64,000 bases of DNA from Candidatus Moduliflexus flocculans (lineage in GTDB: Bacteria; Moduliflexota; Moduliflexia; Moduliflexales; Moduliflexaceae). Below are positions 6,777 to 48,930 of the stretch, in pieces. The stretch covers positions 1,304,712-1,368,711 of the forward strand of contig DF820455.1 of NCBI GenBank assembly GCA_000739515.1. The letters are read 5' to 3'. Made by a program: the position numbers and the translations under genes. The number at the start of each line of letters is the position of its first letter. Position 1 is the stretch's first letter. Under the pieces are notes generated by a model that saw nothing but the letters and a program-made list of their open reading frames with translations, searched no databases and was not told the DNA's origin.

Positions 6777-6812
6777 ACCTGGCTGAGTGAGACGTTTCAA
6801 CGAGGTGATTGC

Positions 6813-10449: not shown

Positions 10450-10470
10450 ACGTTTTTTCTTTGCAACTAT

Positions 10471-10665: not shown

Positions 10666-10892
10666 ATAATTAAATAGAACAACCGCATCTTCTTGAAGGA
10701 ATTATTCAGGTCTCAGGCGTGTCAATGCGCGTTTTGGCGGTCAAAGCGCGCGTTGGCGCTTTTGAGACCTGAATAATTATGAAAAAACGCTTGTTTTTTA
10801 TGGCGTTGTAAATACGAATCGTGAAATCATAACCGATGTTGCGTAACACATTCGACATAATGTGATAACATAAAATAACGGAGGGTTCTCAT

Positions 10893-24989: not shown

Positions 24990-26390
24990 TTATGCTCCCC
25001 AGCCAGGTTCTGAAGCGGAGTTGATACGTTTCAATAAGACCTCGCCTGTTTGGGTATAAAATAAAATTTTTCGACCTAAATGTCCACCCACGTCAGAGAC
25101 GATTAATTCAAGATTATGCGCCTTGATCGCCTGCAACACCGCATCAATATTCGACTTGCCGACCGGCTGCATATTCGGATTGCCGGTTCTGACCGTCAAC
25201 ATATCTGCCCCGCCAAATAACTTCACTTCCAGGTCTTTCGGCTCAGAGCCATAGGTTTTCAGCCGTTGCAGCATCAGCGGGATGACCGTCTGCACGTATT
25301 TATAGGAGAGATTTTCAGTCGTGGCGGCGTGCTGATCCAGCGCCTCATTTCCTTGTGGCAGCAGCGCGTGACACATTGCGGCCACGCCGAGGCGCTTATC
25401 AAACATCGTCACTGCCATGCATGAGCCTAACACGGTGCGCACAATCGCCGGATGATCGCTGATATAGAGTTCAGCGGGTTTCAGCGTGATGACAGGGAGA
25501 TGCGGCGCAAGATGGGCGCTGACTTCTTTTTGATACACCGTATGCGCGACCGCCTTCAGCGGAACCGACAGGCCATTCAGCGTCTCCGAATGGCCGGTGA
25601 AGAGATAGCCGCCCGGACTTAAATGCTGGTAGAGCCGACTAATAACCTGTTCCTGAATGTCGCGGTTGAAATAGATAATCACATTGCGGCAGAAAATGAT
25701 GTCCATTGTTTCGCGAAATCCGAACTCGCCGCGCACCAAATTCACCGAACGGAAACGGACAAAAGCGCGAATTTCAGGGGAAATCCGCACCATGCTTTTT
25801 TCGCGTTCTTTGCTTTTTAACAGATAGCGCTTGCGGAATTCCACCGGGATCGGATCCGCGTTTTCTTCTTCATAAATGCCGAGTCGGGCTTTTTCCAGCA
25901 CTCGCGAAGAGACATCCGTCGCTAAAATCAGAAAATGGAATCCTGGATGTTGCAGGCTGAAATCGTGCAGCACCATCGCCAGACTATATGGCTCTTCGCC
26001 AGAAGAACAGCCGGCGCACCAAAACATGTACTGCCGGTCAGCGCCCTGTCGGCTGATAATTTCTGGAAGGACGCGCTCGATAAGATATTCGAAATGATTC
26101 GGCTCGCGAAAAAAATCGGTTTTGTTCGTTGTTACAACATCAATCATTTGTTGGAGTTCAAGCTCGCGGCCTTCTGGACTAAATACATAATTGTAATACT
26201 CGTCAAAGGATTCGATCTCCAACTTCCACAGCCGTTTTTGAAGCCGTGCTTGAAGCATGGTTTTTTTGGCAATCGGCATTTTGATGCCTAATTCCGCTTC
26301 GATAAATTCACTGAAGCGATAAAAAGACTCATCACTCATGCTTTCGACGTTCGTTCTACGCACACTCTCTTCATTCATAATCGTACTCAC
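24990..26390 (-). CDS. cheR: CheR methyltransferase fused to CheD chemoreceptor deamidase (CheR-CheD fusion)
   Basis: N-terminal CheR signature (TDFFREP, WCAGCSSGEEPYSLAM). C-terminal CheD signature (LGSCMAVTMFD...AAMCHALLP). Confidence 0.8.
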   Translation of the reverse strand: MSTIMNEESVRRTNVESMSDESFYRFSEFIEAELGIKMPIAKKTMLQARLQKRLWKLEIESFDEYYNYVFSPEGRELELQQMIDVVTTNKTDFFREPNHFEYLIERVLPEIISRQGADRQYMFWCAGCSSGEEPYSLAMVLHDFSLQHPGFHFLILATDVSSRVLEKARLGIYEEENADPIPVEFRKRYLLKSKEREKSMVRISPEIRAFVRFRSVNLVRGEFGFRETMDIIFCRNVIIYFNRDIQEQVISRLYQHLSPGGYLFTGHSETLNGLSVPLKAVAHTVYQKEVSAHLAPHLPVITLKPAELYISDHPAIVRTVLGSCMAVTMFDKRLGVAAMCHALLPQGNEALDQHAATTENLSYKYVQTVIPLMLQRLKTYGSEPKDLEVKLFGGADMLTVRTGNPNMQPVGKSNIDAVLQAIKAHNLELIVSDVGGHLGRKILFYTQTGEVLLKRINSASEPGWGA

Positions 26391-26438: not shown

Positions 26439-29105
26439 CTATCGCCGTCGTCCCTGTTTTTTGAGCAGCATGGCTTCAAGGGATTTCAAAACTTCTTCAC
26501 GATCAAGTTTGATCTGGTATTCATCAATGCCGACTTCGAACCCGCGCCGCCGGTCTTCTTCGCCACTGAGCGAGGTCAAGGCCATAACCGGCAAATGTTT
26601 CCATTCCGGCGTGGTTTTAATGATTTTCGTCAGTTCAAAGCCATTGCAATACGGCATATCCAAATCGGTGATGACCACATCCACATGATGCGCCGCGAGT
26701 TTTTCCTGCGCGTCGTTCCCATTAATCGCTGTAATGACGTGATAGCCAGCGGCTTCTAAATAGGATTTTTCGATATTCAGGAAAAACATCGAATCCTCGA
26801 CAATTAACACATCAAGCTTGCTGCGTTCTTCTTCGGTGATTTTGCTGACGAAAAACTTTTTATACCAGGTCGGATAGGCCAATTCGATTAATCCGTGAAT
26901 ATCAAGGATCATCACGGAATGCCCGTCAACAATTGTCGAGCCGAGAATCCCTTTCTGCTTGAACGTTTCTGTATCAATATGCGTATCAATTTCGATGGTG
27001 TTGACAATCTCGGATACGACCAGTCCAATCTGTTTTTCCACAGCAAATACAATGAGCGATAAGGTTTCCTGCGGTGGTGCGGCAGGAATATTGAAATATT
27101 GTTCCAGGCGAATGAGTGGCAAGATTTCATGCCGGTACTGCATGACTTCGCGTCCGCCGGAATATTCGATTTGCGATGCGGGAAACTCTTCCAGCCGCAC
27201 CACAAACGCTAACGGTACGCCATAATATTCATTATTCCCAACACGGAACAGCACAACCGTCTGCCGATGTTCGCGCATGTCAGTTTCACTGATGGCTTCA
27301 GCCTGTTCACCGCCCTGTTGATCGGCCTTTTTAATTTCATCCGATGACAACTGCACGGAACTGTACAATCCTGACGTGTTCAAAATCAACGAAATTCCGC
27401 CGTCTCCCATAATCGTTGCGCCATCGTAATAGGGGAGTTGCTTGATATGACTGCTTAAGGGTTTGACCACGATTTCTTCGGTATCTCCGACATCATCCAC
27501 CACTAAGCCAAAATGCAGTTCCCCAGCAGACAACACGACAATGTTGAGTAAATTATCCGTCGCGCCTTCAGGCTGAGGCAGCGCAAAAACGTCGCGCAAT
27601 CGAATAATTGGCAGGAGTTCGCCGCGCAGCCGATAGACTTCCGCGCCGTAAATGCGCTCGATAGTATGAGATTCGTCTGTGTCGGTCTGCAACATAATCA
27701 ACTCTTCCAGATTTACTTGCGGAATGGCAAACCGCTGTTTTCCGGCGGCGACAATCAGCACGGGAATAATGGCCAGCGTAATCGGCACGCGCAATTTCAT
27801 GGTCGTGCCTTTATGCAATTCGGTCTGCACATCAATCGTGCCGCCGATCCGGTCGAGATTGCGTTTCACAACGTCCATGCCCACGCCGCGCCCTGAAATC
27901 TTGGTAATCTGTTCGGCGGTTGAAAAACCTGGGCGGAAAATGAGCGTGATTAACTGCCGTTCTGTCATCTCTTCCGCTTGCTGCGGCGTCACCAAGCCTT
28001 GCTGAATCGCTTTTGCCTTGACGCGCTGCAAGTCAATCCCCGCGCCATCATCCGCGACTTCGATATGTACCAAACCGGCTTCATGAAACGCGCGAATCTG
28101 AATTTTCGCCGTCGGCGATTTTCCCAATCGTTCGCGGATATTCGGCGCTTCCACGCCATGATCAATTGAATTCCGCACCAAATGCGTCAGCGGGTCTTTA
28201 ATCGCTTCGATTAAGGTCTTGTCCAGTTCAGTCGCCTGTCCTTCCATCACAAGCTGCACGTTTTTCCCCTGCATCATCGAGAGATCACGCACTAAACGCG
28301 GGAACATGCCGAACACCTTTTTAATCGGCTGCATGCGTGTCTTCATGACCGTTTCCTGCAATTCAGTCACCACGACATTCATCCGTTGCGCAATATCGCG
28401 CAAATTCCGTTCCTCGCTTTTCGTGGAGAGCTGCATGACCTGATTGCGCGCAAGGACAAGTTCGGCGGTTAAATTCATTAATTGATCGAGCAAGGCGACA
28501 TCTACATGAATCCGGCTTTCTTCGACTGACGAGAGGGTGCGTTCGATGATTTCAGAGGCTGATTTGGTTGATATATCGCTGGCAACGGACATCGGGGATT
28601 CTTCCTGAATGCTCGATGCGTCCTGCGGTTTTAGCGGTTTCGCGATTTTAGAAAATGGCGCAGATTTTTCCGAGAGCGTTGCTTTGGCGGCTGTTCGATC
28701 TTCAGGAGCAGTGCGAATTTTTTCAGCGATAGATTTTAACGCTTTCAAGACGGGATCAACGTCATGTTCTCCTTCATGACCGGTTTTTTCAATCGTCAGC
28801 AAAATAGATTTAATTGTATCTACCGCGCTCAGCAGCACAGTCGTAATATCGGAATTCAGCCGTAGCGATCCTTCTCGCAGTTTGGAAAGCACGTCTTCGG
28901 CATAGTGTGACACTTGCTCTAACGTGACGAGACTCAGAAACCCCGCGCTCCCTTTGATGGTATGGATAATCCTGAAAATATCCGCCAATAAATCGGCATT
29001 CGACGGGTTTTGTTCAAGCGCGACAAATTCATGATCCAACCGCTCAAGATTTTCCTGCGATTCCATCACAAAGTCGCGAAGTACTCGATCTAATCCATCG
29101 TTCAT
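26439..29105 (-). CDS. cheA: Hybrid CheA histidine kinase: Hpt - dimerisation - HATPase - CheW-like (P5) - second CheW-like domain - C-terminal REC
   Basis: Hpt motif IIHTIKGSAGFL. HATPase motifs DDGAGID and GRGVGMD. Two CheW-like domains. Terminal REC (LIVEDS...TDLDMPYCNG). Confidence 0.85.
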   Translation of the reverse strand: MNDGLDRVLRDFVMESQENLERLDHEFVALEQNPSNADLLADIFRIIHTIKGSAGFLSLVTLEQVSHYAEDVLSKLREGSLRLNSDITTVLLSAVDTIKSILLTIEKTGHEGEHDVDPVLKALKSIAEKIRTAPEDRTAAKATLSEKSAPFSKIAKPLKPQDASSIQEESPMSVASDISTKSASEIIERTLSSVEESRIHVDVALLDQLMNLTAELVLARNQVMQLSTKSEERNLRDIAQRMNVVVTELQETVMKTRMQPIKKVFGMFPRLVRDLSMMQGKNVQLVMEGQATELDKTLIEAIKDPLTHLVRNSIDHGVEAPNIRERLGKSPTAKIQIRAFHEAGLVHIEVADDGAGIDLQRVKAKAIQQGLVTPQQAEEMTERQLITLIFRPGFSTAEQITKISGRGVGMDVVKRNLDRIGGTIDVQTELHKGTTMKLRVPITLAIIPVLIVAAGKQRFAIPQVNLEELIMLQTDTDESHTIERIYGAEVYRLRGELLPIIRLRDVFALPQPEGATDNLLNIVVLSAGELHFGLVVDDVGDTEEIVVKPLSSHIKQLPYYDGATIMGDGGISLILNTSGLYSSVQLSSDEIKKADQQGGEQAEAISETDMREHRQTVVLFRVGNNEYYGVPLAFVVRLEEFPASQIEYSGGREVMQYRHEILPLIRLEQYFNIPAAPPQETLSLIVFAVEKQIGLVVSEIVNTIEIDTHIDTETFKQKGILGSTIVDGHSVMILDIHGLIELAYPTWYKKFFVSKITEEERSKLDVLIVEDSMFFLNIEKSYLEAAGYHVITAINGNDAQEKLAAHHVDVVITDLDMPYCNGFELTKIIKTTPEWKHLPVMALTSLSGEEDRRRGFEVGIDEYQIKLDREEVLKSLEAMLLKKQGRRR

Positions 29106-29211: not shown

Positions 29212-31392
29212 TTAATAGCGCTCGAAATCTTTATCATGTTCGTCTTCCGCGATGGAGGGCATCGCCGAAAAAAACGTCTCACGGTCACTTTTCAGGCGTG
29301 TATTCTTTTGGGAATCAGGCCGCGCGTCGGGCGAAATCCTGGATTTTGGCTGGCGCGGCGATGCGGCGTCTGGAATCGGCGCATCGAAAGACTCCATGGA
29401 TTCAGGGACATGGAAGAATCCGATAATCGTGCGAAGCTGTCCAGCTTGCGCCGCTAATTCTTCGGCGGTTGACGCGACTTCTTCCGACATCGCGGCGTTT
29501 TGCTGCACGATCTGATCTAATTGTTGGATGGCGCGGTTGATTTGTTCGGTTCCGGCGTTTTGTTCGCGGCTTGCCGCCGTAATTTCCTGCACAAGTTCGG
29601 AGGTTTTTTGAATATCCGGCACTAAGCGCGACAGCATATTCCCGGCTTGTTCTGCGATAGAGATGCTGTTGATGGCTAAATGATTGATTTCTTCTGACGC
29701 GGTTTGGCTTCGTTCCGCTAATGAGCGCACCTCTGCGGCGACGACCGCAAAGCCTTTGCCATGCTCTTGCGCTCGCGCGGCCTCAATCGTGGCATTGAGC
29801 GACAGAAGGCGCGTTTGGCGGGCAATGTCTTCGATAATGGAGACGCGCTTCGAAATCTCATGCATCGCAGACACCGTTTCCAGGACTGCCGCGCCGCTGG
29901 CGCGTGCGTCTTCAGCGGATTTGATTGCAAGTTTTTCGGTCTGGAGGGCATTTTCGGCATTTTGCCGGATATTCGCAGCCATTTGTTCAATGGAGGACGA
30001 GGCTTGTTCTGCGGCGGCGGCCTGCTGAGAGGCGCCTTGCGACATTGCTTGTGCGCTGGAACTCAAATTCTGGCTGCCACTTGCGACCTGAAATGCCGCT
30101 TTCTGGATGCTGATTGTCACGTCGCGTAATTTTTCAATCATCACATTGACCACCGTTTGAAATCGTCCGATTTCATCGGAGCGCGTCATGGCTATGCGGA
30201 CATCAAGGTTTCCTTCGGAAAGCTTCTCTGTCGCGGTAATCGCCTGTATAATCGGAATGCTCAGGTTTTTGGCTAAGAGAAAAATCGCCGCGAGCGCAAG
30301 CAACGCGCAGCCTGCGCTTATGCCGATTAAGACAAATGTTTTCTGCCTGCTTTCCTTGAGAAGCGCGTCTGCTTCGGCAGTAATGCGCGCGCGGGGGATA
30401 TTGATATTCACGATCCAGGGCGTTGCGCTCTGTCCGATATGAATAGGGGTAAACACTTCAAGCGCGTTCTCTAAGAGCATGACCGATTCTTCTTCGCTCT
30501 GAATGATGTTTAATAGATGGGTATGCTCGTCTTCGTGGGATTGAGCAGAATTGTTGGCTTGGTTCTCCGTGTGTTCGTGGCCGCCATGCAGCGTATCAAT
30601 CATCTGCCCAGCCAATTGCGGCTGATTTTTGGCCGCGACAATGGTGCCGTTATGGCTGAATAGGACAAACTGCGCTTCCCCTCCGTATAGATCAGGCAGC
30701 GTGTCAATCATGTGCTGCAATACCGCTAATCGCATATCCACGGTGATCACGCCGTAAAAATTGTCTTGAAATATAATCGGCGCGGTAAGGGTCGTCATGA
30801 AAATATTTTTCCCCTGCACAGGGTAAAGGTAGGGATCAATCACGCATTCGCGTTTCGTTTGTTTCGGGCAAAAGTAGTATTCTCCTTTGCCTTCGATGGC
30901 ATAATTTTCTAATGGAGCAAGCGTGATCGTGTCGTTTTCGCCACGCGACCAATATGGGATAAACCGTCCTGTTGCATCATGGCCAGGTTCATTGGCATAG
31001 CCGGAATCTAATTCGTCAAAGGCGTTTGGTTCCCAGGCGGTTCCGATGCCGACAAAATTATCATTTTCCGAGAGAACCGTTTTGAGCAGTCCATTGACCT
31101 GATCGCGATCAATTTGTAAGCCAATGTCAGGGTTTTTGATTCCTTGAAGACTCTGCGCTAATGTTCGCGCCGTATCCATCGCAGTTTCCATCTCGGCTTT
31201 GATGGCATTTGCATATTGTTGCGCTAACGTTCTGACGTAATTCTGAGTATCGCGAAGTGCTGTCTCTCTCTCAGAAAACGCCTGTTTCCGCATATCAACG
31301 ACAATATACGCGACAATCACAGTGGTCGTCAGAAGTAGGCACAACCCCATCCACGACGCAATTCTGACTTGAAGTCGTTTGTAGAATTTCAT
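29212..31392 (-). CDS. Methyl-accepting chemotaxis protein with a Cache-like periplasmic sensor and HAMP; C-terminus ...DFERY
   Basis: TM1, ~300-aa periplasmic domain, TM2, HAMP, then the MCP signalling domain (ARTLAQS...[13 protein letters not shown]). Confidence 0.85.
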
Positions 31393-31618
31393 ATCCCTCC
31401 CCCTGTTTCCCCAGGGCTGTTACGTTCTGTCATTGCGCGGAGCGTCAGCGACAAAGCAATCCCTGATCTTCGCGAGATTGCTTCGTCGTTGTCACTCCTC
31501 GCAATGACAACGTCGTGACGAGAACTTCACAACCCTGCTCTGTTTCTCTGCATAAACCGATTTGTCTCCCCTGATTCTTTCCTGTGTATGCTTTTCATGG
31601 TATGGCGTTATTCCCTTG

Positions 31619-31696
31619 CATTGAACGGGCCAAAACCTGTCAGACACCGTGAAGGTATCTGACAGGTCTGTTCAATCATCGTGCATAATGCTGTAT
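31619..31696. repeat. Repeat family 4, long form (CATTGAACGGG...CTGTCAGACACCGTGAAGGTATCTGACAG...CTGTTCAATCATCGTGCATAATGCTGTA)
   Basis: Homologous copies at 41336-41412 (same orientation) and about 46429-46512 (inverted). Confidence 0.6.
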
Positions 31697-31744
31697 GCCA
31701 CCGGCAGATATTGTCCATGAAAAAACACAACATTTTCATTTCGA

Positions 31745-32914
31745 TCATGACGCCGTTGATACCGTTGTGCGCTTGACCGAACGCGGCGGATAGGCTGGGC
31801 GCTCAAAGATAATGGCAACTTTTGTGCCTTGCGCGCTCTCGATGGTAATCTCTCCTTTTAATTGACGCACCAGCATTTTTACCAAGCGCAGCCCAAACGA
31901 GAGCGCCTGATGTTCTTCTGAAAGAATGTGCGGAAAACCGATCCCATTGTCTTTCACCTCTAATAATAACATCGCGGTGTCATACGTTTGCAACGCGATC
32001 TGAATTTCATTGGGCGGCTGGAGGGGCTGGCATTTCTGGGGAAAGGCATATTTCAAACTATTGGACATCAATTCGTTGATAATTAGCCCACATGAGATTG
32101 CTGTGTCCACATCGAGAGAAACAGGGGTGACATCAATCGCTAACGAAATGTTGGTTTTCCCATAGGATTGCAACAATGTATGCGCTAACTGCGTGATATA
32201 CGCATGCACGTCTAACTCGGCCAGGTTGCTGGATTGGTAGAGTTGTTCGTGAATATGCGCGATTGAGCGGATGCGGTTCTGCGCTTCTAAGAAAATATCA
32301 CGCGCCAGAGGGTCTTTAATATCTTCTGATTGCAAATCCAATAAACTGGAAATGACTTGTAAATTGTTTTTGACGCGATGGTGGAGTTCTCGAAGCAAGA
32401 CTTCCTTTTCTTTGAGCGATGCCTGAAGTTCTTCCTGGGTTCGCGTTCGCTCATAAATTTCATTTTTCAATTCTTGCGTCCGCTGTGCCACCAGTTCTTC
32501 AAGGCGTTCGCGGTGCTTTTGGAGTTCCAACTCATTCTGTTTGCGCTGAATAGCATTTTCAACGGTCAACGCCAATGTTTTTAAATAATTGCCTTCCTGA
32601 TCTTTGATCAAATAGTCATATGCCCCGGCTTTCATGGCTTTGACAGCGATCTCTTCGTTGCCGATGCCGGTGACAAGAATAATGGGAATGCCTGCCAAAT
32701 CATCAAAGAGATCGAAGGCCACGCCGTCTCCTAACACATAATCCACGACAGCGGCATCAACAGGCGTCGTTCGGAGCAGTTGGCGCGTCTGTTCGACTGA
32801 GCCGGCAATGACGTATTCATAGGGAAAATGTTCGCGCCTGGCAAACCGCTCGAACGCCATCTGGTCAACTTTGTCATCTTCAACAAACACAATCTTGTAA
32901 GGAGCGCATTCCAT
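31745..32914 (-). CDS. Hybrid histidine kinase: N-terminal REC, HisKA_2-type phosphoacceptor (HHRVKNNLQ) and HATPase
   Basis: REC motif IVFVEDDKVD. The HHRVKNNLQVISSLL H-box. C-terminal ATPase G-boxes. Confidence 0.8.
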   Translation of the reverse strand: MECAPYKIVFVEDDKVDQMAFERFARREHFPYEYVIAGSVEQTRQLLRTTPVDAAVVDYVLGDGVAFDLFDDLAGIPIILVTGIGNEEIAVKAMKAGAYDYLIKDQEGNYLKTLALTVENAIQRKQNELELQKHRERLEELVAQRTQELKNEIYERTRTQEELQASLKEKEVLLRELHHRVKNNLQVISSLLDLQSEDIKDPLARDIFLEAQNRIRSIAHIHEQLYQSSNLAELDVHAYITQLAHTLLQSYGKTNISLAIDVTPVSLDVDTAISCGLIINELMSNSLKYAFPQKCQPLQPPNEIQIALQTYDTAMLLLEVKDNGIGFPHILSEEHQALSFGLRLVKMLVRQLKGEITIESAQGTKVAIIFERPAYPPRSVKRTTVSTAS

Positions 32915-32917
32915 AAC

Positions 32918-33367
32918 TTATTCCTCGTCAGGCATCTCACTCAACGTCCAATAGAGATTGATCGTGCGAACGACTTCAACAAACTGCTGATAATCAACAG
33001 GTTTGATCATGTATCCGGCGACGCCTAAATCAAAGCTTTCAAACTTGTCCTGATCGTTTTTAGAAGCAGTTAGCACGACGACTGGAACTTTTTTTAACGA
33101 GGGGTCTTTTTTAATAATCTGGAGGAGTTCCAGACCATTCATTTTCGGCATATTCAGGTCTAACAGGATGATACAGGGGCGTTCTGTATTCGGCTGGTGT
33201 AAAAACTGCAATGCCTCTTCCCCGTTACCCGCCACAAACACGTCATTCGTGACGTGAATCTCCCGCAGCGACCGCTTCACAGTCATCGCATCCACTTTAT
33301 CATCTTCAACCAATAAAATAGGCTTTTTGCTATTCATCATCATAGCTCCTTCACATTGCATTGCCAA
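32918..33367 (-). CDS. Single-domain CheY-like response regulator
   Basis: 149 aa, REC only (ILLVEDDKVD...DLNMPKMNG). Confidence 0.85.
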   Translation of the reverse strand: MAMQCEGAMMMNSKKPILLVEDDKVDAMTVKRSLREIHVTNDVFVAGNGEEALQFLHQPNTERPCIILLDLNMPKMNGLELLQIIKKDPSLKKVPVVVLTASKNDQDKFESFDLGVAGYMIKPVDYQQFVEVVRTINLYWTLSEMPDEE

Positions 33368-33858
33368 ACCGCTATGCCGCCCCCCGGCATACGGGTAGGG
33401 GTATCGTTGTATGCATCCTTTTAATCTGTCTGAGCGATAGCGAACCTCAATACATGATCACGCTTCGACAACGCATTGAGGACGGCTATACTGAAAAAAT
33501 ATATCCGTTATCGCAATATTGCAAGATGGCGTCAATGAAATTCTCCATTCAATTCATGCAATGACATAAGAACGTCATTTTTATGCGCGTCGTTCTGAGA
33601 TTTTTGTGGAGATGGAAGACTTGCCAGACCGTTCACTATGTCAACCCAAACTGGCGATCACATTCGAGGTCTGATTCAATCCAGGTTCGGTCTCCATCGA
33701 AGCGAATAAAAGATTGCTCATAATTTTCGACACGTTCGCGGCTGAATTGGTTAATATTGCGTCTGGCATTTATCGCGCCGATAGTGGCGAATTGACGAAA
33801 ATTTCTGCGGTGTTCCGCGCGATTTCCTCCTGTTCGCAAATCGTCTGCGGGTTGTGTT

Positions 33859-35112
33859 TCATGAAGATTTGGGCAGAGTGAAAAAAAATTTGCTCCCCTG
33901 ATTCAGTTCGGACTCTACCCAGATAGTCCCACCATAAAGCGTAATAATCTTTTTCACAATTGCAAGCCCTAATCCAATCTGTTTATCGTTGTCATGGGTA
34001 TGCAGTGTTTGAAATAGGTGAAAAATTTTGTCGTGATATTCCGCAGGAATCCCTGCGCCGTTATCAGCCACTTCAAACTGCCAAAATCCTCCATGATCGC
34101 GACAGGCAATTGTCACCTGTCCTTGAGGGCGTCCCATAAATAAAATTGCGTTATCTATCAGGTTGCCAAACAGGGCTGACAGGTGTTCTTTCTTGCCAGA
34201 GATGACAGGGAGAGGGGTCAGGATACAACACACGATCGTCTCTGGCGGCATGAGATTTTCGAATATCTGCGGAATCAGGGCGTTCAGATCAATCGGCTTG
34301 ACTTTCTCTGGCTGCCGGACAATGCTGATGTATTCCGCGATGCCATCAAGCAGACTATTCATCCGTTTGACGCGCTGAACCAACCAGGAGAGCATTTCCT
34401 GGGCGCGCGCATCAAAGAGATGGCTATAATCATCTTTCAGCCATTGCGCCAATTGCCCGATCCCGCGCAGCGGCGTTTTCAAATCGTGCGAAACCGTCGA
34501 GATGACATTTCGAAGATCATCATTGGCCGCTTCTAATTCTGCCGTGCGTTCTCGCACACGCTGTTCGAGGCGCGCATTCATCTGGCGCACGGCCTCTTCG
34601 GCTTCTTGTCGCTGGCGAATTTCTTGCTGCAAGATTGAATTCTGTTTCTGGAGCGAGCGTTGCAGCCGACTCAGTTTTAAATGCGTGTGTACCCGCAGCA
34701 ACACTTCATCGGCCTGAAACGGTTTGGTAATGTAATCTACGCCACCGATTTGGAAGGCGTAAGCTTTGTCCTGAATATCATCTTTCGCGCTGATAAAAAT
34801 AATTGGGATATCACGAGTCCGCGCGTCATTTTTGAGTTGACGGCAAATCTCATAGCCGGAAATTTCTGGCATCATAATATCCAGCAATATCAAATCCGGC
34901 GGCTGCGTCTGTGCGCTGACGAGAGCTAAGTGTCCATGAGAAACCGGTCGCACCACATGCTGTTGGGATTTCAATATCTCCATCAACATGCGAAGATTGG
35001 CCGGAATATCATCAACGATCATGATCGCGCCGACCAATCTTTCCTGAGGGGCTGTTGCATCAACATGATTCATATCCGGGTTTGTCTTGATGATCGCGCA
35101 GACATTTGACAC
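33859..35112 (-). CDS. Hybrid histidine kinase: REC - coiled coil - HisKA - HATPase
   Basis: REC (IMIVDDIPANLRM...DIMMPEISG). H-box VSHDLKTPL. G-box GLGLAIVKKI. Confidence 0.8.
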   Translation of the reverse strand: MSNVCAIIKTNPDMNHVDATAPQERLVGAIMIVDDIPANLRMLMEILKSQQHVVRPVSHGHLALVSAQTQPPDLILLDIMMPEISGYEICRQLKNDARTRDIPIIFISAKDDIQDKAYAFQIGGVDYITKPFQADEVLLRVHTHLKLSRLQRSLQKQNSILQQEIRQRQEAEEAVRQMNARLEQRVRERTAELEAANDDLRNVISTVSHDLKTPLRGIGQLAQWLKDDYSHLFDARAQEMLSWLVQRVKRMNSLLDGIAEYISIVRQPEKVKPIDLNALIPQIFENLMPPETIVCCILTPLPVISGKKEHLSALFGNLIDNAILFMGRPQGQVTIACRDHGGFWQFEVADNGAGIPAEYHDKIFHLFQTLHTHDNDKQIGLGLAIVKKIITLYGGTIWVESELNQGSKFFFTLPKSS

Positions 35113-35145
35113 TTTCTGCGGCCTGCCTATCCATTCACGTCCCCG

Positions 35146-37161
35146 TCAGCGATTCAGCAATTTATGGATAATTCCATCCAATTTGCGCAAATTGACAGGT
35201 TTGCTCATATACTCGTTCGCGCCAGCCTCGATGCACCGTTCGCGGTCTCCAGGCATGGCAAGAGCGGTCAACGCGATAATCGCAGGGGACATGTCCGGCA
35301 GGGCGCGAATATGCTGAATCGCTTCGAGGCCCCCCATGACCGGCATCTGAATATCCATCAGAATGGCCGCAGGTCGCATCTGAATCGTTTGTTCAAGCGC
35401 CTCTTTCCCATCTTTTGCGATAGCGACGGCATAGCCTTTCAATTTGAGATACTCAGCTAACATCTCCGCATTGGTTTCATGATCGTCGGCGACAAGAATC
35501 ATCGGCGCGGTCGTCGAATTGTTCGGAGCGCTATCGTTGGCAATCCCCGGCGAGATCGTTGATTCTTCCTGAATCTGCTCTTGATGCTGAACAAGCGACG
35601 CATTGTGGACGGGCAAAGAAACCGTAAACCGGCTTCCTTTGCCGACAGTGCTTGTCACGCTGATATGCCCGCCATGCATTTCTACCATTCGGGAAACCAA
35701 CGACAGCCCTAACCCCGTTCCCGGGTGTCGGCGAGTAAATGTGCCATCTAACTGAACAAATGGCTGAAATAAGCGCTGAATATCTTCGGGCGAGATGCCA
35801 ATGCCGGTATCCCAGACAGTAAAATGCACCTGGTGATCATGTTCCGAACGGACATCGAGGCCGACCTGTCCGCCTTCTGGCGTAAATTTCACCGCATTGC
35901 TCAGCAGATTGACGAAAATTTGTTTGAGACGCCGTTCATCGGCATCAAGCGTTGGCATTGCGGCCTGAAAATCAAATGAAATGGCAATCCGTTTTTTGCT
36001 CGCCTCTTGTTTGATAAAGCGTAAACTTGCCTGACAGACGTTCTCGATATTGACCGGGGAGATCAGCAGTTCTAACTTCCCTGCGCCAATTTTGGCTAAA
36101 TCCAAAATATCGCGAATAATCGCAAGCAAATGGCGGCCACTTTCATCAATGCTGTTCAATGCATCCCGCTGTTTCTGCGTTAATGCGCCGAAAATCTCTT
36201 CTTGCAATGCCTCGGTCATGCCCAGAATTGTATGGAGCGGCGTGCGAAATTCATGGCTCATCGTGGCGAGAAATTCATCCTTCATTCGGGCAGCGCGGGC
36301 AAGTTCGGCATTGGCTTGCTGGAGTTCGGCGGTACGTTCTTCGACACGCCGGGTTAGCGATTCGCGTTCTTGCTGCAACGCTAATTCGCTTTCTTTTCGT
36401 TCGGTAATATCCTGAACCAGGCCATCGTAAGAGATCAGCACGCCTTGTTTATCGTGATGCAGCACTGACGTATTTCTTACCCAGCGCACTGCGCCGTCTT
36501 TTCGAATAATCCGATGCTCGTATGGCTCGACATTCTGCCCCTCCATCAGGCGCTCTGTGCGTTCGATCACCATCTGGCAATCCGCGTCATAGACCATTTG
36601 AATCCAAAGATGCGGATTTTTTCGAAATTCTTCTTGCGTATATCCTGTCACTGCGATACAAGTCGCGCTATGTTCTGTTGATTCTGCGCGGCCATCTTGC
36701 ACGCGCACCGTATAAATGTAATCCGTCACCGCTGCAATTAACCGACGGTAGCGCTCCTCGCTATCTTTCAACATCCGCTCCAATTGATGCCGATAAATCG
36801 CCATTTCGATGCAACTGTGTAATTCCCTGGTCTGAAATGGTTTAATCAGATAGCCAAACGGCTCAGCCAATTTCGCGCGTTGAAGTGTTTTTTCATCGGC
36901 ATAGGCGGTGAGATAGATGACCGGGACATCATACAGCAAGTGAAGATGTTTCGCGGCGTCAATGCCATCGATCTTTCCCTCAAGTTCAATATCCATCAAC
37001 ACCACATCCACCTGATATTTAAGCGCTTTTTGAATGGCTTGCTCGCCCGTGCTGACGACATCCGCAATCGCATACCCCAATCGCTCTAATTTGGTTCTGA
37101 TATTTTCAGCGACGATCACTTCGTCTTCCACAATAAGAATACTGGTCTGCGTTTGCGCCAT
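35146..37161 (-). CDS. Hybrid sensor histidine kinase: REC - PAS - HisKA - HATPase - REC
   Basis: N-terminal REC (ILIVEDEVIV...DIELEGKIDG). H-box MSHEFRTPL. ATPase motifs. C-terminal REC (ILVADDHETN...DIQMPVMGG). Confidence 0.8.
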   Translation of the reverse strand: MAQTQTSILIVEDEVIVAENIRTKLERLGYAIADVVSTGEQAIQKALKYQVDVVLMDIELEGKIDGIDAAKHLHLLYDVPVIYLTAYADEKTLQRAKLAEPFGYLIKPFQTRELHSCIEMAIYRHQLERMLKDSEERYRRLIAAVTDYIYTVRVQDGRAESTEHSATCIAVTGYTQEEFRKNPHLWIQMVYDADCQMVIERTERLMEGQNVEPYEHRIIRKDGAVRWVRNTSVLHHDKQGVLISYDGLVQDITERKESELALQQERESLTRRVEERTAELQQANAELARAARMKDEFLATMSHEFRTPLHTILGMTEALQEEIFGALTQKQRDALNSIDESGRHLLAIIRDILDLAKIGAGKLELLISPVNIENVCQASLRFIKQEASKKRIAISFDFQAAMPTLDADERRLKQIFVNLLSNAVKFTPEGGQVGLDVRSEHDHQVHFTVWDTGIGISPEDIQRLFQPFVQLDGTFTRRHPGTGLGLSLVSRMVEMHGGHISVTSTVGKGSRFTVSLPVHNASLVQHQEQIQEESTISPGIANDSAPNNSTTAPMILVADDHETNAEMLAEYLKLKGYAVAIAKDGKEALEQTIQMRPAAILMDIQMPVMGGLEAIQHIRALPDMSPAIIALTALAMPGDRERCIEAGANEYMSKPVNLRKLDGIIHKLLNR

Positions 37162-37354
37162 ATCGTATATGGATCACGTTTTCTGCCAGGGAACGCCCCT
37201 GATAGATAAGGATATATGCTTGCAATTTCTGGTGTGTTGCGCGTTCGGAAAAGACGGCAGAAAACACACCAGAACGCGGCGGTTCTGTCAATGGGAATTT
37301 GCGTCACCGCGAGTTTTTCCTCGTCGGCAACCGCAACGCCTCTCATGTTCGGCG

Positions 37355-40300
37355 TTAATATCGCTCGAATTCCTCGTCCCGCTCATCGCCGAGCGCGAAA
37401 GGATGCCGCACAGGAATCGGCGTGTCTGCCGCGCCATTTTCAGCCCGGCTGACAGCGCGGACGATTTTTTTCGCCGCCGCCTCTTCCCGGCGTCTCTCTT
37501 TAACAGGCAAGGCGTCGTTCTCCCGTTTTCGAGGAAGATTGGAGAGGCTTTTTTCGTCTTCATATCCGATATTAAAAAAACTCATGGTGACTTGTAATTG
37601 TTCGGCTTGACTGGCCAATTCTTCCGAGGTGGACGCCACTTCTTCGGCAGTCGCCGCATTTTGCTGAATCACTTGATCCAACTGCTGAATAGCCCGATTG
37701 ATCTGTCCCGCGCCGGAATCTTGTTCTTTGCTGGCTGCGCTGATTTCCTGGACAAGTTCGGCGGTTTTTTGAATGTCCGGCACGAGGCGGGCGAGCATTT
37801 CTCCGGCATATTTCGCGATTTTGACGCTGGCGTTCGCGAGATTATTGATGTCTTCCGCGGCGGCCTGGCTGCGTTCCGCTAACGAGCGCACTTCCGCCGC
37901 CACCACCGCAAAGCCTTTGCCTTGTTCCGCCGCCTTGGCCGCCTCAATCGTAGCATTCAGCGACAACAGGCGCGTCTGGCGGGCAATATCTTCAATAATC
38001 GCAATCCGCTTCGCAATGTCTTGCATGGCAGCCACCGTATCCGCAACGGCTTTGCCGCTTTCCTGCGCGTCTGCTGCCGATTTTAACGCGATCTTGTCTG
38101 TCTGCGTGGCATTTTCCGCATTCTGACGAATATTGGCAGCCATTTCTTCCATAGATGACGACGCTTCTTCTGCCGCTGCCGCCTGTTCGGTCGTGCCTTG
38201 CGAAAGCTGCTGCGCGCTGGAACTCAATTGCTGGCTGCCGCCAGAAACGTAATTCGCCGCAAATTTGACGCTGGTCACGACATCGCGCAGTTTCCTGACC
38301 ATCGCGCCGAGCGCTCGCATCAAGCCATCGCGCTCTGAACGCGCCTCAACCTGAATCGTTAAATTCCCATTCGCCAATTCCTCGGCCATGTGCGTGATGT
38401 CCGCCATCACTTGAATCAGCACATTCAGGTTCGTTTTGATCTCGTTGAAGTCACCGAAGTAAGTCTCCTGGATTGGTTCTGGCAGGTCGCCTTTCGAGAT
38501 GCGATCCACATACGTCGCCGCGACATTTAATGGGGTAATGATCGCGTCGAGCGTGTTGTTGACGCCTTCGACGATTCGTGCAAAATCGCCGCTGAACCGC
38601 CCGACTTCGCCGCGCGTGGCAAGCTGCCCTTGCGTTGCCGCATTCGTCAGGCGGATTGCCTCCGCAACTAAGCCGTTGATGGCATCAATGCATTGATTCA
38701 GATTATTTTTAATGTCGTTAAAATCGCCGTGATACATTTCGGTGATTTTGTCTGGAATATCCCCTTTCGAAATGCGATTCACATACGCTGCCGTCAGTTG
38801 AATCGGCTTGACAAACGCATCAATCAACAGGTTAATCCCTTCAACCGTGTCGCGCCAGCCGCCGGAGAATTTAGCGAGATTGCTCCGCATCGTCAGATTT
38901 CCCTGCCGCGTTGCGTTAATCAATTCATTCGTTTCCTGGAGAATTTGATGAATGCATTGGATCATCAGGTTCAACGAACGCATCAACGTGTCATGTTCGG
39001 AACACTCGCGCGCTTCAATCTTGAGGTTGCCGCTGGCAATGGATTCAGCAATCCGCGTGGTCTCATTGGTCGCATCAATCAGGAGATTCAGATTATTGAT
39101 CATCGTCACGAAATCCCCTTGATAGGCTGAAGTGATTTTCTCTGGAATATCTCCTTTCGCAATACGATCCAGATGGGCAGCGGTAAGCGCGAAGGGTTGC
39201 GTAAACGCGTCAATTACGTTATTCACGCCGCCGATCATCTCGCACCAGCCGCCAACAAATTGACTGGCATTGCCTCGCATGGCAAGCTGCCCGGTCTGAA
39301 TGGCTTGCGTTAAGACTCCCATTTCCTTCAGCACGGCGCGGATCGTGCTTTGCATGTCGCGAAATGCTTGCGCGAGGCTGCCGATTTCATCGCTGCGGAT
39401 CAGGCGAATCTCTTTGCGGGTTTCGCCTGCCGCCAGCTCGTTCGCCAGGCCAACGATCTGCGTTAGCGGCTTCGTGATCGAGCGGCTGAAAATGCTGAAT
39501 CCCACGATCACCATCAATGCTGCGGCAATGAATGTGACCAGGCCAGTGCGCGTGGCGAATGGGATTCTTGCGGCGACGGCGGCCTGCATCTGCTGCTGTT
39601 CTTCTCGGATCGAATTTTCGAGCACATTGAGGCTCTGGCGGATCGGATCGCTATACCCATCTAATTCATCATCAATATTCACAAATTCCGCATTGATTTG
39701 CGCGGCGGCGACGGCGCTTTCTTGAATCAACCGCGCCAACGTCTCTTGCACTCCTGTGGCGAGCTTCGGAAACGTCTCGCGAATCATTCGAGCCGCCTCT
39801 TTTTCATTCTCTGTCTCAACGAATCCATCCAGTTGAGCGACGGCCAGGCGCATCGTCTGAATAGCATTCTGAATCGTTTTCAGGCGTTCCTCCTGGATGC
39901 GGCCTTCATCTTTGTCTATAATCGAATCCATCGAGGCTAACATGAGTTTAGCATGAAATTCTGCAAACGTGCTCAACAGATTGACCTGTTCACTGCGGCG
40001 CAGCAATTCCTGCGAGGCGTTGCTCACCTTCTTTTCAACCGATGTCATCAGTATCTCGAATTGTGTTTGAATCTGTTTTCCGAGATCGCCCAACGCGCCA
40101 TTTAGCGCGGCAAACGCTGCGTCATTCTGCGCGCCAGACGCCGCGCTTTCCTGAAGCAGTTTGACCAAATCGGTTAAAATGCCCTTCTCCAATTGCGGCA
40201 GCAGCGTTCTGATTTGATTGACTGACGCCTGTTCCTCGCTCGTATCCGCAAGCGCATCCAGTTGGGAGAACCGAGTTTGAATGAATTGCAAGCTGCTGGA

Positions 40301-40990
40301 AATCTGGTGCAGGCGCTGCTCGCTGATTTTGCCGGATTGTCGATCAATCATGGACTGTATGGCCTCTAACATGAGCAGATGATGCATTTGCAGACATTCT
40401 CGCAAAAAGCGAGCGTGTTGATTGAATGTTGCGGCAATATTGGCGGCAGTCTCCTGTTTTTCATGCAACGACGAGCGCAACGTAGTGATCGCCGCGTCAA
40501 TTTGAGCGCCATCCTGATCGAGTTCGTTATCAATTTGTTCGAAAGCTTTTGTAATATCCTGAAGTTGCGCCGCGCTCTGTTCGATCAAGCGCACCAAACG
40601 CTCTTGAATGCCAACTTGTAATTTGGGAAAGATATCCTCAGCTTTTTGAAAGGCGATTTTTTCCTCATCGGTATCAACAATTGCGCCCAACTCCTGAAAC
40701 CGCTGCTTCAATGCGGCGATATTTTCGGTGATGACTTTCATGCGCTCATCGCGAATGCGGCCTTCGTCTTTATCAATGACGGAATCCATTGCCGCCAATA
40801 CCAGATCAACCAGCAGCGTCCGCGCTTGAATGGCGCGCTCTAATTGGCGCTCGCGTTCAGCCATTGCCTCATTCGTCTGCCTGATGAGTTGGTTTGTTCG
40901 AAATGAAATCCCGCCCATTGCGCCTAAAATGATGATAATCATCATGCCCATAATCAACATTTTTTTGCCAATCGTCCATCTCATGTTCAT
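37355..40990 (-). CDS. Giant methyl-accepting chemotaxis protein (1211 aa): triple-repeat helical periplasmic sensor, poly-HAMP array, MCP signalling domain; C-terminus ...EEFERY
   Basis: Two TM segments bracket a ~450-aa periplasmic region holding three ~115-aa repeats. Cytoplasmic HAMP follows, then three ~78-aa HAMP-like repeats ([12 protein letters not shown]...YxGDF) and two more HAMP-like units. Confidence 0.8.
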
Positions 40991-41287
40991 TCCTCCTCAT
41001 GTTCGTTTTTCAGGGTTATCACGTGTCATGAATCGCGTTCAAACTCATCGTCACGCTCATTTCCGTTCCCATGAGACGAGGCGCGATGTACGGTTTTTTT
41101 CAAAAATGATCGCATTGTTCATTGCGATTGAACAAGAGCGCAAAAGCCATTGAATGATGCTGTATGTACCATTTATTGCACTTCGAGCGCATGTCAAGAA
41201 TCTTTTTTGCGGGGATTCGGAGAGAGGGATCGCGAGCAGCGCGCAATCCCAACGATGACACGGGATCATTCGTTTTTATGAATATGT

Positions 41288-41440
41288 CGTACCGCCGACG
41301 TCCTCGTCGGCCTCTCTTACAGCATTATTCACTTGCATTGAACGGGACGAAACCTGTCAGACACCTTGAAGGTGTCTGACAGGTCTGTTTAATCATCACG
41401 CTTAATGCTGTACAGCGCCGACGAGGACGTCGGCGGTACG
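41288..41440. repeat. Nested repeat: family-3 palindrome arms (41288-41311 and 41417-41440) with a family-4 element (41336-41412) in the loop
   Basis: Outer 24-bp arms CGTACCGCCGACGTCCTCGTCGGC / GCCGACGAGGACGTCGGCGGTACG. The inner core is the ACCTGTCAGACACCTTGAAGGTGTCTGACAGGT palindrome. Confidence 0.6.
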
Positions 41441-41556
41441 AAATGCCATTAAAATCTCATGAAACAGTGCGCTGTTCTAAGGAAAGGCTGGACGGGTTCT
41501 AAAAATCTGAGCGACGTTTATCGAACGGGAAAACGGCGATGTTAGGCACGCATTTT

Positions 41557-44019
41557 TCAGAATCGCTCGAATTGATCGTCGTACTCGTCTGGTTCTGTCA
41601 GGTCGCTAACGCTGCGCTGAGACGGGCGTCCCCAGCTCTTCTCTCTTTGCGAGGCAACAATTTTTTTCATCATTTTGTCTGAGGGGTGCGGCCTCTCTTC
41701 AGGCTGTTCTGGCAGATCGCCATCCCAATGCTCGTCATTGACTTTGAAATAGTTCATCGCAATTTGTAGTTGGCGCGCCTGACCGGTCAACTGTTCCGCC
41801 ATAGAAGCCATTTCTTCGGCAGTCGCAGTATTTTGTTGAATGACATGATCCAATTGCTGAATCGCGTTATTAATTTGCGCGGATCCGGAGCTTTGTTCGC
41901 TGGTGGCCGCAGTGATTTCCATCACCAACTCAGATGTTTTTCGAATATCGGGAACAAGCTGCGCTAACATCTCACCCGCCACGCTGGAGACGGCAAGGCT
42001 GGATCGCGTCAATTCGTTGATTTCTTCCGCCGCGTCGTGACTGCGCTGCGCTAATGCACGCACTTCAGCAGCGACAACAGCAAAGCCCCTGCCGTGTTCC
42101 TGCGCTCTGGCCGCTTCGATTGTGGCGTTCAACGATAACAGCCGGGTTTCCTGCGCGATTTCCTCGATAATCGTAATTTTTTTGGCGATTTGCTGCATCG
42201 CCTGAACGGTCTGCGCCACGGCTTCTCCGCTCTTCTGCGCATCCGCCGCAGATTTCATCGCGATTTTTTCCGTCTGTATCGCGTTGTCCGCGCTTTGCCT
42301 GATGTTCGACGCCATTTGCTCCATTGATGCGGAAGCCTGCTCAGCGGCAGCGGATTGCTGACTTGCGCCATCCGCCACTTCCTGTGCGCTGAGGTTCATT
42401 TGCATGCTTCCATCCGCGACATTTCGCGCGGCGGCTTTGACACTGATCACAATTTCATGCAGTCGTTTCACCATCGCGTTCAACGCGATCATTAAGCGAT
42501 CATGTTCGCTGCGCTCCCGCACATCCACCGTCAAATTTCCGGCAGCGATCTCTTCCGCCATGCCAACAACATCGGTCAACGCCGCGATCATGCGATTCAG
42601 CGCACTCATGAGTCGATCCTGCTCAGAACGTTCTTTCGCCGCAACCGTCAGATTTCCGTTTGCAATCTGTTCGGCAATTGCCGAGATGTCATTCATGGCG
42701 TCAATCAGCCCGTTGACATGCTCCTGAATCTCGTTGAAATCACCAGCATACTGATGCGTGAGCCGTTCGGGAATATCGCCTCTGGCAATTCGTTTCAGGC
42801 TCTCCGCTGTCACTTGAAACGGATCCATAAACGCATCAATCATTCCATTCATCCCGACAATCAAATCCCGCCAACACCCTTGAAATTTCGCGGCGCTTCC
42901 TCGCTCATGCAGCGTTCCGGCCTGAATTGTGCGAGTCAGGCGTTCAGTTTCTCGCAGGGCTTCTTGAATGCGACTTTTCATCCCTCCCAATGCAATTGCG
43001 AGTTCGCCGATTTCGTCGCTTCGACGGACATTTAATTCGGCTTGAATATCGCCGCTCGCAATCGCTTTGGCAAACGCGACGCCTCTCACCAATGGCCGTG
43101 TTAAGTTTTTCGCCACCAGCCAGATAACGAGCGAAACGCCGCCAATCATCGCCAGGGTCAGCGCGAACACCGTCTGGCGAAGATGAGCCACCGGGCTGAA
43201 CATATCGTTCATGTCCGCGCCGACTGCCACTGTCCAACCCGTTAATGGAACTTGCGATAGATAGACCTGTTTAGGATTCCCTTTCCAGACATAGGTGAAC
43301 AAGCCTTCGTGAGCCGCCAGCAAATCCTGTCCAAATTCGAAATCGGTGATTTTCTGGTCTAAAATTCGCTCTTTTTCAGGGTGGGAAATAAATGTTCCAT
43401 CCTTTTCCAGCATATACGCATAGCCTTTTTCACCGATGTGAATCGGAGCAATAAATTTATCGGTGACGGAATTTAAGCTGATGGAGACCAAAAAAACGCC
43501 GATGACACGTTCCTCCGACAACACTGGCGCAGAACACGCAAGCACAGGCTCGCCAGTCGTCCGGCTGCGAATTACCGACGAGATCGCGACTTTCCCCGCC
43601 AGGCTTTCCTGGAAATACGCGCGGTCATCATACCGGGCGGTTCCGACATTTTCCGCTGTCGAAGACGCAAGCGTCATGCCGTCAAGATTGACGATATTCG
43701 CTACCACATATTGATAGCGCTCTTTCAGTCTTTTCAACGCCAGATTCGCGGTTTGAATCCCTTGCCAGTCATTTGGATTTTTCAGTACATTGACGGTGAT
43801 ATTCCGCTCGCTTTGCTGTAGGACATCGAGCTGTAGGTTGCGCAGCCATTCTTCGATTTGCCCGGCAAGCCGTTCACTGGCCTGCTCCATTTCGCGCGTA
43901 ATTTCTGTCTGTAACGCCGATCTGGCCGACGTGTACGCCACAAACATAATCACGCCCGCCCCGATAATGATCGTGCTGAGTGTCGGGATAAAAAATCGGT
44001 TAAATACATTCCATCGCAT
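41557..44019 (-). CDS. Methyl-accepting chemotaxis protein with a dCache-like sensor, multiple HAMP-like repeats and the MCP signalling domain; C-terminus ...DQFERF
   Basis: TM1, ~280-aa periplasmic domain, TM2, HAMP, one 78-aa repeat, two HAMP-like units, then the signalling domain ([13 protein letters not shown]). Confidence 0.85.
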
Positions 44020-47117: not shown

Positions 47118-47498
47118 TCAGGCTGTTGCAGCAGCCTCGGTTTTCGGAACATCCACAAGGCGACGTTCTTTGATGCGCGCATCTTTGCCGCGTTTTTTGC
47201 GCAGATAATATAATTTCGCGCGGCGCACTTTCCCGCGACGCACGACTTCGATCTGGGCGATATTGGGTGAATGCAGCGGGAAAATGCGTTCCACTCCGAC
47301 TCCGAAGGACATTTTGCGGACGGTGAACGTGGAGCGTTTCATTCCGCGTCGTTTGCGGATGACGATCCCTTCAAACACTTGAATGCGTTCTTTGCCGCGC
47401 TCCCGGACTTTTGCATGAACTTTTACCGTGTCTCCCGAACGAAAATCCGGGATGTCGGTGCGCATTTGCTCTCGATCAATGGCTTCTATCAACGTCAT
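47118..47498 (-). CDS. rplS: 50S ribosomal protein L19
   Basis: Conserved L19 sequence ([14 protein letters not shown]...[14 protein letters not shown]). Confidence 0.95.
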
Positions 47499-48929: not shown

Positions 48930-48930
48930 C

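Follow-up and report, generated by a model that had tools for sequence, protein, structure and literature searches.

The stretch of DNA analysed here, hereafter the window, comprises 64,000 nucleotides of Candidatus Moduliflexus flocculans (GenBank assembly GCA_000739515.1, contig DF820455.1, positions 1,304,712 to 1,368,711). It contains a chemosensory gene cluster whose three methyl-accepting chemotaxis proteins (MCPs) share a C-terminal pentapeptide, xFER(Y/F), and it is this peptide and its possible partner, the CheR encoded in the same cluster, that are considered below. The gene order of the cluster, from MCP3 to CheB, was obtained by translation of open reading frames (ORFs) and Pfam searches. 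All of its genes lie on the minus strand, and coordinates are window positions on that strand unless another locus is named. The Pfam MCPsignal domain was found in MCP1, MCP2 and MCP3, which are the only MCPs in the window. MCP3 (41557-44019, 820 amino acids) has a dCache_1 sensor, HAMP and HAMP_2 units and a signalling domain of class 34H. MCP2 (37355-40990, 1211 amino acids) has a 4HB sensor, HAMP, three HAMP_2 units and a class 34H signalling domain. It is unusually long, with an N-terminal helical region of ~480 residues that gave a weak Pfam match to 4HB_MCP_1, and its three HAMP_2 units stand in tandem before the signalling domain; MCP3 also carries one such unit. MCP1 (29212-31392, 726 amino acids) contains a PDC/dCache-type sensor, HAMP and a class 34H signalling domain (29407-30111).

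Downstream of MCP1 are genes predicted to encode a CheA-CheW-REC hybrid kinase (26439-29105; Pfam Hpt, H-kinase_dim, HATPase_c, CheW in two stretches and Response_reg), a CheR-CheD fusion of 466 amino acids (24990-26390) and a CheB methylesterase (23881-24957; Pfam REC and CheB_methylest, with 436 bits against the NCBIfam CheB model at a cut-off of 293). In the fusion, residues 1-290 form the CheR methyltransferase module (25521-26390; Pfam CheR_N and CheR), the proposed docking partner of the receptor C-termini, and residues ~300-460 form the CheD deamidase module (25011-25493; Pfam CheD and NCBIfam CheD models). Four two-component genes are embedded among the receptors (31745-37161), encoding a REC-PAS-HisKA-HATPase-REC hybrid kinase (35146-37161), a REC-HisKA-HATPase kinase (33859-35112), a single REC domain (32918-33367) and a REC-HisKA_2 kinase (31745-32914). 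A CheA with fused CheW and REC, together with these four kinase and regulator genes, suggests a non-flagellar output of the phosphorelay type. This is consistent with a non-flagellated glider, the KSB3/Modulibacteria being filamentous gliders without flagellar genes and with >60 MCPs per genome (PMC4312070).

Endings and class of the three receptors

Translation bore out a preliminary description of this DNA, made from the sequence alone, in which all three MCPs were said to end in xFER(Y/F). The endings are DFERY in MCP1 (29215-29229), EFERY in MCP2 (37358-37372) and QFERF in MCP3 (41560-41574); the wider intervals reported previously (29212-29232, 37355-37375 and 41557-41577) span the final six codons together with the stop codon. 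Among the 53 window ORFs of at least 150 amino acids that end in a stop codon, a C-terminus of the form [FYW]xx[FYW] was found in three, namely the MCPs, and FER[FY] was likewise confined to these. The chance of FER[FY] at a C-terminus, calculated from the amino-acid composition of the window, is ~1.5e-5 per protein; this probability and the restriction to three MCPs ruled out a chance origin of the shared ending. The definition of Perez & Stock, as it is quoted in later papers (PMC7390727, PMC7698151), describes the chemoreceptor pentapeptide as xZxxZ with Z = F/W/Y, and an alternative definition used in a census is x-[HFYW]-x2-[HFYW] (PMC7184735). DFERY, EFERY and QFERF all satisfy x-[FWY]-x-x-[FWY] at the C-terminus.

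The peptide terminates a linker that follows the signalling domain and that is unstructured and poorly conserved, as judged by sequence drift between orthologs and a low predicted local distance difference test score (pLDDT) in AlphaFold2 (AF2) models. The tails, that is, linker and peptide after the signalling domain, measure 64 residues in MCP1 (29215-29406), 70 in MCP2 (37358-37567) and 60 in MCP3 (41560-41739), and have in common only roughly their last ten residues (29215-29244, 37358-37387 and 41560-41589, respectively). The earlier characterisation of these tails as acidic applies to their last 15 residues, with a net charge of -4 to -6, but not to their middle, which is basic (net +2 to +6). 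A negative-positive-negative charge pattern has been reported for linkers in receptors with a pentapeptide (bioRxiv 10.1101/2024.03.07.583918), and the window tails show this pattern, the first 15 residues having a net charge of -4 in MCP1 and -7 in MCP3 and being about neutral (+1) in MCP2.

The class of the signalling domains was assigned from the gap pattern against E. coli Tsr, a 36H receptor. Alignment of MCP1 with Tsr (PDB 6s1k, 3zx6 and 1qu7) by phmmer contained exactly two gaps of 7 residues, symmetric about the hairpin tip; MCP1 therefore has one heptad fewer per arm than 36H, which corresponds to class 34H. The signalling domains of MCP1, MCP2 and MCP3 align gap-free over 235 residues, ending ...FF[HNK]V, so that MCP2 and MCP3 belong to the same class. 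Consensus methylation sites with E-Q or Q-Q pairs are present in all three receptors and provide substrates for both a methyltransferase and a deamidase. Pentapeptide-bearing MCPs are either 36H receptors with xWxxF or 34H receptors with a class-specific xF/YxxF/Y (Tran et al., 2008; PMC2577667), and the 34H receptors of Geobacter, with the consensus EFEKF, are encoded beside a distinct 'group B' CheR (PMC2577667). Receptors of class 34H have been assigned to F8-class systems (PMC11253619, PMC7184735); in Pseudomonas syringae the sole 34H receptor is the only pentapeptide receptor and adjoins the only CheR with a beta-subdomain insertion (PMC11253619). Since the window receptors belong to class 34H, their motif can be read as the known xF/YxxF/Y variant of that class.

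Alignment of ortholog C-termini, a check that the preliminary description had proposed, showed that the ending is kept in most orthologs and lost in one ortholog of MCP1, which is considered further below. The last ten residues are invariant in the five closest full-length MCP1 homologs (P0121-P0125, 71-97% identity), unlike their linkers, which diverge in sequence and length. In a syntenic locus with an MCP1 ortholog of 77% identity (L081), endings are kept on all three orthologs, that of MCP2 reading DEHDEEFERY, and in a more distant one (L083, 71%) the MCP3 ortholog ends DEYDSEFERF and MCP2 is absent. The loci concerned in L083 are 10001-12148 and 6269-8329, and an extra PocR-PAS histidine kinase was found among its embedded kinases; to judge from these losses and this insertion, the che cluster appears to be evolving quickly.

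Among the 120 best homologs, 107 were of class 34H, having no extra residues relative to the window profile in their best single-domain match; such matches were used for the class calls, as HAMP repeats split profile matches and render the heptad estimate from extra residues unreliable. An ending of the form [FYW]xx[FYW] was present in 64 of the 74 34H homologs whose tail was 35 residues or longer, compared with 0 of the 33 whose tail was shorter (Fisher p = 4e-19). The consensus of the 64 motif-bearing homologs is D-x-x-D-x-[ED]-F-E-[RK]-[YF], with Asp at -7 in 57, Phe at -4 in 61 and Glu at -3 in 58 of them; thus the conserved stretch exceeds five residues and extends over about ten.

The CheR module and its predicted docking site

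The CheR module aligned with Salmonella CheR (1af7, 1bc5) with E = 7e-45 and without gaps across the beta-subdomain (Salmonella residues 182-198; the numbering of the window CheR is that of Salmonella CheR + 5). Three residues are deleted there, as gaps of 1 and 2, in CheR1 of Pseudomonas aeruginosa, which is pentapeptide-independent, whereas the beta-subdomain of the window CheR is full-length, i.e. it has the three-residue insertion of pentapeptide-dependent CheRs. The corresponding segment KRYLLKSKEREKSMVRI (residues 187-203, 25782-25832) is the predicted pentapeptide-binding region, and the segment in Geobacter group B CheRs is of the same type. Residues of Salmonella CheR important for binding of NWETF are given as Q182, R187, G188, G190, G194 and R197 in a paper that cites Perez & Stock for them (PMC2577667). 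R197 corresponds to R202 of the window CheR, which is invariant among the fusion homologs, and R187 to K192, a conservative replacement.

The window triplet K192-S193-K194 matches the pattern [RK][SG][RK] at Salmonella positions 187-189. Co-variation of this pattern with the receptor ending was assessed in 64 loci (63 genome loci and the window) with a CheR and a complete neighbouring receptor. A canonical pentapeptide was found on the neighbouring receptor in 38 of the 42 loci with [RK][SG][RK], compared with 5 of the 22 loci without it (Fisher p = 7e-8, a value that ignores phylogeny). Within the Alphaproteobacteria, Lichenicola, Rhodospirillaceae and Telmatospirillum combine an RSR triplet with FERY, FKEY or FEQF endings, and both triplet and pentapeptide are absent from Rhizobium, Sinorhizobium, Sphingomonas, Methylobacterium and Bradyrhizobium. 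Caulobacter conforms less cleanly, locus L065 lacking the triplet yet encoding receptors that end in DFTEY and EFTEY. We regard the co-variation of triplet and pentapeptide as supportive of a functional pairing, not decisive.

Two constructs were modelled with AF2, each including the natural 64-residue tail of MCP1. In the first, the tail was combined with the complete CheR-CheD protein, using an alignment of 55 homologs; pLDDT was >90 for most of the two enzyme modules, lay at 31-37 in the linker and reached 61 in the last ten residues. The CheR module of this model superposed best on Salmonella CheR 1bc5_A (TM-score 0.92, root-mean-square deviation 2.4 A), with TM-scores of 0.69 against full-length P. 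aeruginosa CheR1 and 0.81 against Bacillus subtilis CheR, and the CheD module gave a TM-score of 0.85 against Thermotoga maritima CheD (2f9z_C). In the second construct, consisting of the CheR module (residues 1-290) and the same tail, the linker had pLDDT <50 (residues 306-342), residues 341-350 a mean of 66 and the last five residues, DFERY, a mean of 86. In this model EHDKD forms a short helix and F-E-R a beta-strand; the first construct followed the same trend, residues 528-529 being assigned as strand. As CheR is the only folded domain in the second construct, the modelled F-E-R strand must pair with CheR, and strand pairing is the binding mode in the crystal structure of Salmonella CheR with NWETF (PMC2577667, PMC7390727).

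The peptide might serve mainly to recruit CheB or another partner, with CheR binding secondary or absent. The pentapeptide of E. coli and P. aeruginosa binds CheB too (PMC7698151, PMC8609364), and the CheB gene lies directly downstream of cheR-cheD; the CheB of Pectobacterium, however, binds no pentapeptide although receptors of that organism carry one, and CheBs that depend on the pentapeptide are indistinguishable by sequence from those that do not (PMC7698151). Moreover, both the co-variation and the AF2 docking concern CheR, and roles in binding CheR and CheB are not mutually exclusive, so that CheB may be a second client of the tether. We consider it unlikely that CheB or another protein is the principal partner.

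Distribution of the ending and of the CheR-CheD fusion

Species-representative genomes were scanned with the window CheR, which yielded 80 loci, and every ORF in them was searched with the profile of the window's 34H domain. The receptor encoded immediately upstream of cheR ends in ...D.[DE]FE[KR][FY] in at least six phyla, this ending being found in Nitrospirota, Desulfobacterota, Geobacteraceae, Acidobacteriota, Verrucomicrobiota, Methylacidiphilaceae, Ignavibacteriales and some Alphaproteobacteria; Bacteroidota also have it beside cheR, often as YEKF. In the 80 loci cheR and cheD are separate genes, mostly overlapping by a few bases, with cheD sometimes ~1 kb away or absent. Apparent fusions among them, suggested by tblastn matches spanning residues 18-460, were actually adjacent, overlapping cheR and cheD genes. 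Between the CheR half of the window protein and stand-alone CheRs of Desulfobacterales, Nitrospirota and Geobacteraceae, identity is 56-62%. Relatives of the window protein in which CheR and CheD are fused form ~60 protein clusters of 41-99% identity, the named ones being from Candidatus Vecturithrix or candidate division KSB3. The recurrence of the fusion in ~60 independent clusters excluded a frameshift artefact as its source. The fusion junction, at residues ~288-300, had low AF2 confidence.

The preliminary description had called the peptide a different one from NWETF and suggested a lineage-specific tether, possibly for the fused CheR-CheD enzyme. All three receptors of a cluster that encodes such a fusion do carry the motif, and the fusion is confined to ~60 protein clusters, of which those with names are KSB3/Vecturithrix-like. 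However, the peptide fits xZxxZ, and as a variant of class 34H it had been published for Geobacter receptors in 2008 (PMC2577667). The same ending accompanies separate cheR and cheD genes in Nitrospirota, Desulfobacterota, Acidobacteriota, Verrucomicrobiota, Bacteroidota and Alphaproteobacteria, and AF2 docked the peptide on the CheR module alone, without CheD. A tether specific to the fusion is therefore barely credible, and neither the novelty of the motif nor its dependence on the fused enzyme could be upheld; its presence in many phyla beside unfused cheR and cheD indicates that it is a class-wide feature, neither lineage-specific nor fusion-dependent.

The 34H receptors of Rhizobium, Sinorhizobium, Caulobacter, Sphingomonas, Methylobacterium and Bradyrhizobium retain the acidic D-x-x-D-x-x-F core and end in ...F-R-[EQ]-S-A, ...F-R-E-Y-A, ...F-[VI]-R-A-A or ...D-F-Q-R, without a terminal aromatic residue (L052, L053, L056, L061-L065, L067, L068, L072, L073, L076, L077 and L080; receptors upstream of cheR, ~10000). 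The CheRs encoded beside them lack the basic triplet at positions 187-189. From their sequences these endings could represent a derived recognition mode or a different function, those in ...AA, ...SA or ...YA being degron-like.

A conserved receptor C-terminus might also be a signal for localisation or proteolysis, for example a ClpXP-type degron or a polar-targeting signal such as that of Helicobacter pylori TlpD. Caulobacter McpA has a degron, and the Alphaproteobacterial relatives with ...SA, ...YA and ...AA resemble degrons at their ends. Chemoreceptor C-termini with roles of this kind have been described, as for TlpD (PMC13001251). The canonical ending, however, resembles NWETF and GWEEF in its aromatic positions 2 and 5 and in its Glu at position 3; it shows tight linkage to, and co-variation with, a single CheR subfamily; and the clusters share no conserved protease or localisation factor. 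That the ending of the window receptors acts as a degron or localisation signal is thus very improbable.

Some of the related clusters encode, in addition, short soluble MCPs of another class with a second conserved ending, x-[IVL]-[ED]-L-F (for example SIELF and NVELF). These were found in L026 (3304-4629), L029 (3170-4465), L030 (2756-4105), L059 (534-1538), L066 (331-1575), L067 (1008-2225) and L078 (586-2517), the positions being those within each locus. MCPsignal is the only Pfam domain that they contain, and the window encodes no such protein. Their ending is similar to the McpA-like C-terminus discussed below.

A candidate 34H tether and its relation to known systems

Taken together, sequence comparison and modelling lead us to propose that xFER(Y/F) is the class-34H version of the chemoreceptor tethering pentapeptide and that it would bind the CheR module encoded in its own cluster, a reading to which we assign a probability of roughly 0.8. 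In this respect the preliminary description, which had offered the peptide as a candidate tether for CheR, was very probably right: the conservation pattern, the linkage of the genes, the co-variation with the beta-subdomain and the AF2 docking all point in the same direction.

Several observations weigh against this interpretation. Four of the positions important for NWETF binding in Salmonella CheR are not conserved in the window CheR, Q182, G188, G190 and G194 being replaced by K187, S193, E195 and S199, respectively. The triplet pattern used for the co-variation was defined after inspecting the data. One MCP1 ortholog (P0126, in L083) lacks the motif and has the degenerate ending ...PPFNDVERV; by analogy with the low-abundance receptors of E. 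coli, this suggests that the motif is dispensable on individual receptors. The AF2 docking was obtained without a negative (mutant) control and its partner strand is unverified, and AF2 may be reproducing the 1BC5 binding mode learned in training. Finally, we found in the searchable literature no binding measurement for any F-type (34H) pentapeptide, the Geobacter genomics paper being the only source on EFEKF-like peptides; the pentapeptide-CheR affinities that we did find all concern Trp-type peptides from 36H receptors.

From these lines of evidence we infer physical binding, its site on CheR and an effect on methylation or deamidation, which could come about as follows. The disordered linker of 55-65 residues would hold the peptide away from the helical bundle of the receptor, and the peptide would bind the beta-subdomain of its own CheR module as an extra beta-strand. 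The acidic residues that precede it would probably take part, the recognised element being D-x-x-D-x-[DE]-F-E-[KR]-[FY]. Docking would then increase the local concentration of CheR around the sites of methylation. The CheD deamidase, being joined to CheR in this lineage, would travel on the same tether, and such co-tethering of CheD would be a mildly new point; no prior description of the fusion or of co-tethering through it was found in a literature search that was uninformative on the fusion. A more elaborate scheme may be envisaged, in which the tether delivers CheR and CheD together (as the first tethered CheD), the decapeptide is read by the basic CheR triplet, and this code is orthogonal to that of xWxxF/36H and insulates the pathway in a glider with >60 receptors. 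As a whole we regard this scheme as tentative and somewhat doubtful.

The closest known counterparts are the Geobacter 34H receptors with EFEKF and their group B CheR (PMC2577667). The receptors of both belong to class 34H, their peptides agree in F2, E3, a basic fourth residue and F/Y as the fifth, and in both the pentapeptide receptor adjoins a CheR with beta-subdomain features of the pentapeptide type. CheRs of Geobacteraceae that are 49-59% identical to the window CheR module stand beside receptors ending in ...SFEKF (L005, L007 and L010). Unlike in Geobacter, the window cluster has the CheR-CheD fusion, the CheA-CheW-REC hybrid and four extra kinase/regulator genes and belongs to a KSB3-like host, and its peptides differ from EFEKF by Arg at position 4 (K->R) and by a residue at position 5 that is mostly Tyr.

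With NWETF of E. coli and Salmonella Tar/Tsr, which are 36H receptors (1BC5), the window peptides share aromatic residues at positions 2 and 5, Glu at 3, a disordered linker and its charge pattern. Likewise, the window CheR resembles that of Salmonella in the length of the beta-subdomain, in having K/R at the positions of R187 and R197, in its fold (TM-score 0.92) and in the docking by strand addition predicted by AF2. The differences are that the window peptides have Phe rather than Trp at position 2 and Arg/Lys rather than Thr at position 4, that they occur on 34H rather than 36H receptors, that their linker is about twice as long as in Tar/Tsr (55-65 versus ~30-35 amino acids), and that conservation of the window type spans about ten residues, D-x-x-D-x-[DE]-F-E-[KR]-[FY].

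P. aeruginosa McpB/Aer2, ending in GWEEF, functions with CheR2/CheB2, and the P. syringae 34H receptor PSPTO_0912 (F8) with the CheR PSPTO_0910 (PMC7390727, PMC7698151, PMC11253619). In these species targeting is pathway-specific: receptors of a single pathway are marked by the pentapeptide, and the beta-subdomain insertion is confined to the CheR of the same cluster. The arrangement in the window, from which one cluster of the genome is visible, may be similar. Given >60 MCPs per KSB3 genome (PMC4312070), targeting of a pathway's enzymes to its own receptors would be useful. The C-termini of McpA-like receptors (x-V-x-x-F) are non-aromatic and have been reported not to bind CheR (PMC7184735); these receptors resemble those of the window in having a strongly conserved ending on an extension, but the latter are aromatic at position 2, and McpA-like endings of the form [IVL]-E-L-F occur on the short soluble MCPs of related clusters and not in the window.

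The window thus adds a KSB3-like organism to the already described pairing of class-34H pentapeptides with CheR. For annotation, the three receptors, the CheR-CheD fusion and probably CheB can be grouped as a single 34H-type adaptation module in a glider that is KSB3-like and lacks flagella. Although Phe-type 34H peptides occur in many phyla, share ten conserved residues and show co-variation with CheR, they have apparently never been measured biochemically. Whether CheD gains from tethering is a question for which the natural CheR-CheD fusion would be a convenient reagent.

Elsewhere in the window, also on the minus strand, a predicted S-adenosylmethionine-dependent RNA methyltransferase (Pfam Methyltrn_RNA_4; 47620-48309) is encoded between trmD (48246-48989) and rplS (47118-47498) of a rimM-trmD-rplS operon, its ORF as listed overlapping the end of trmD.

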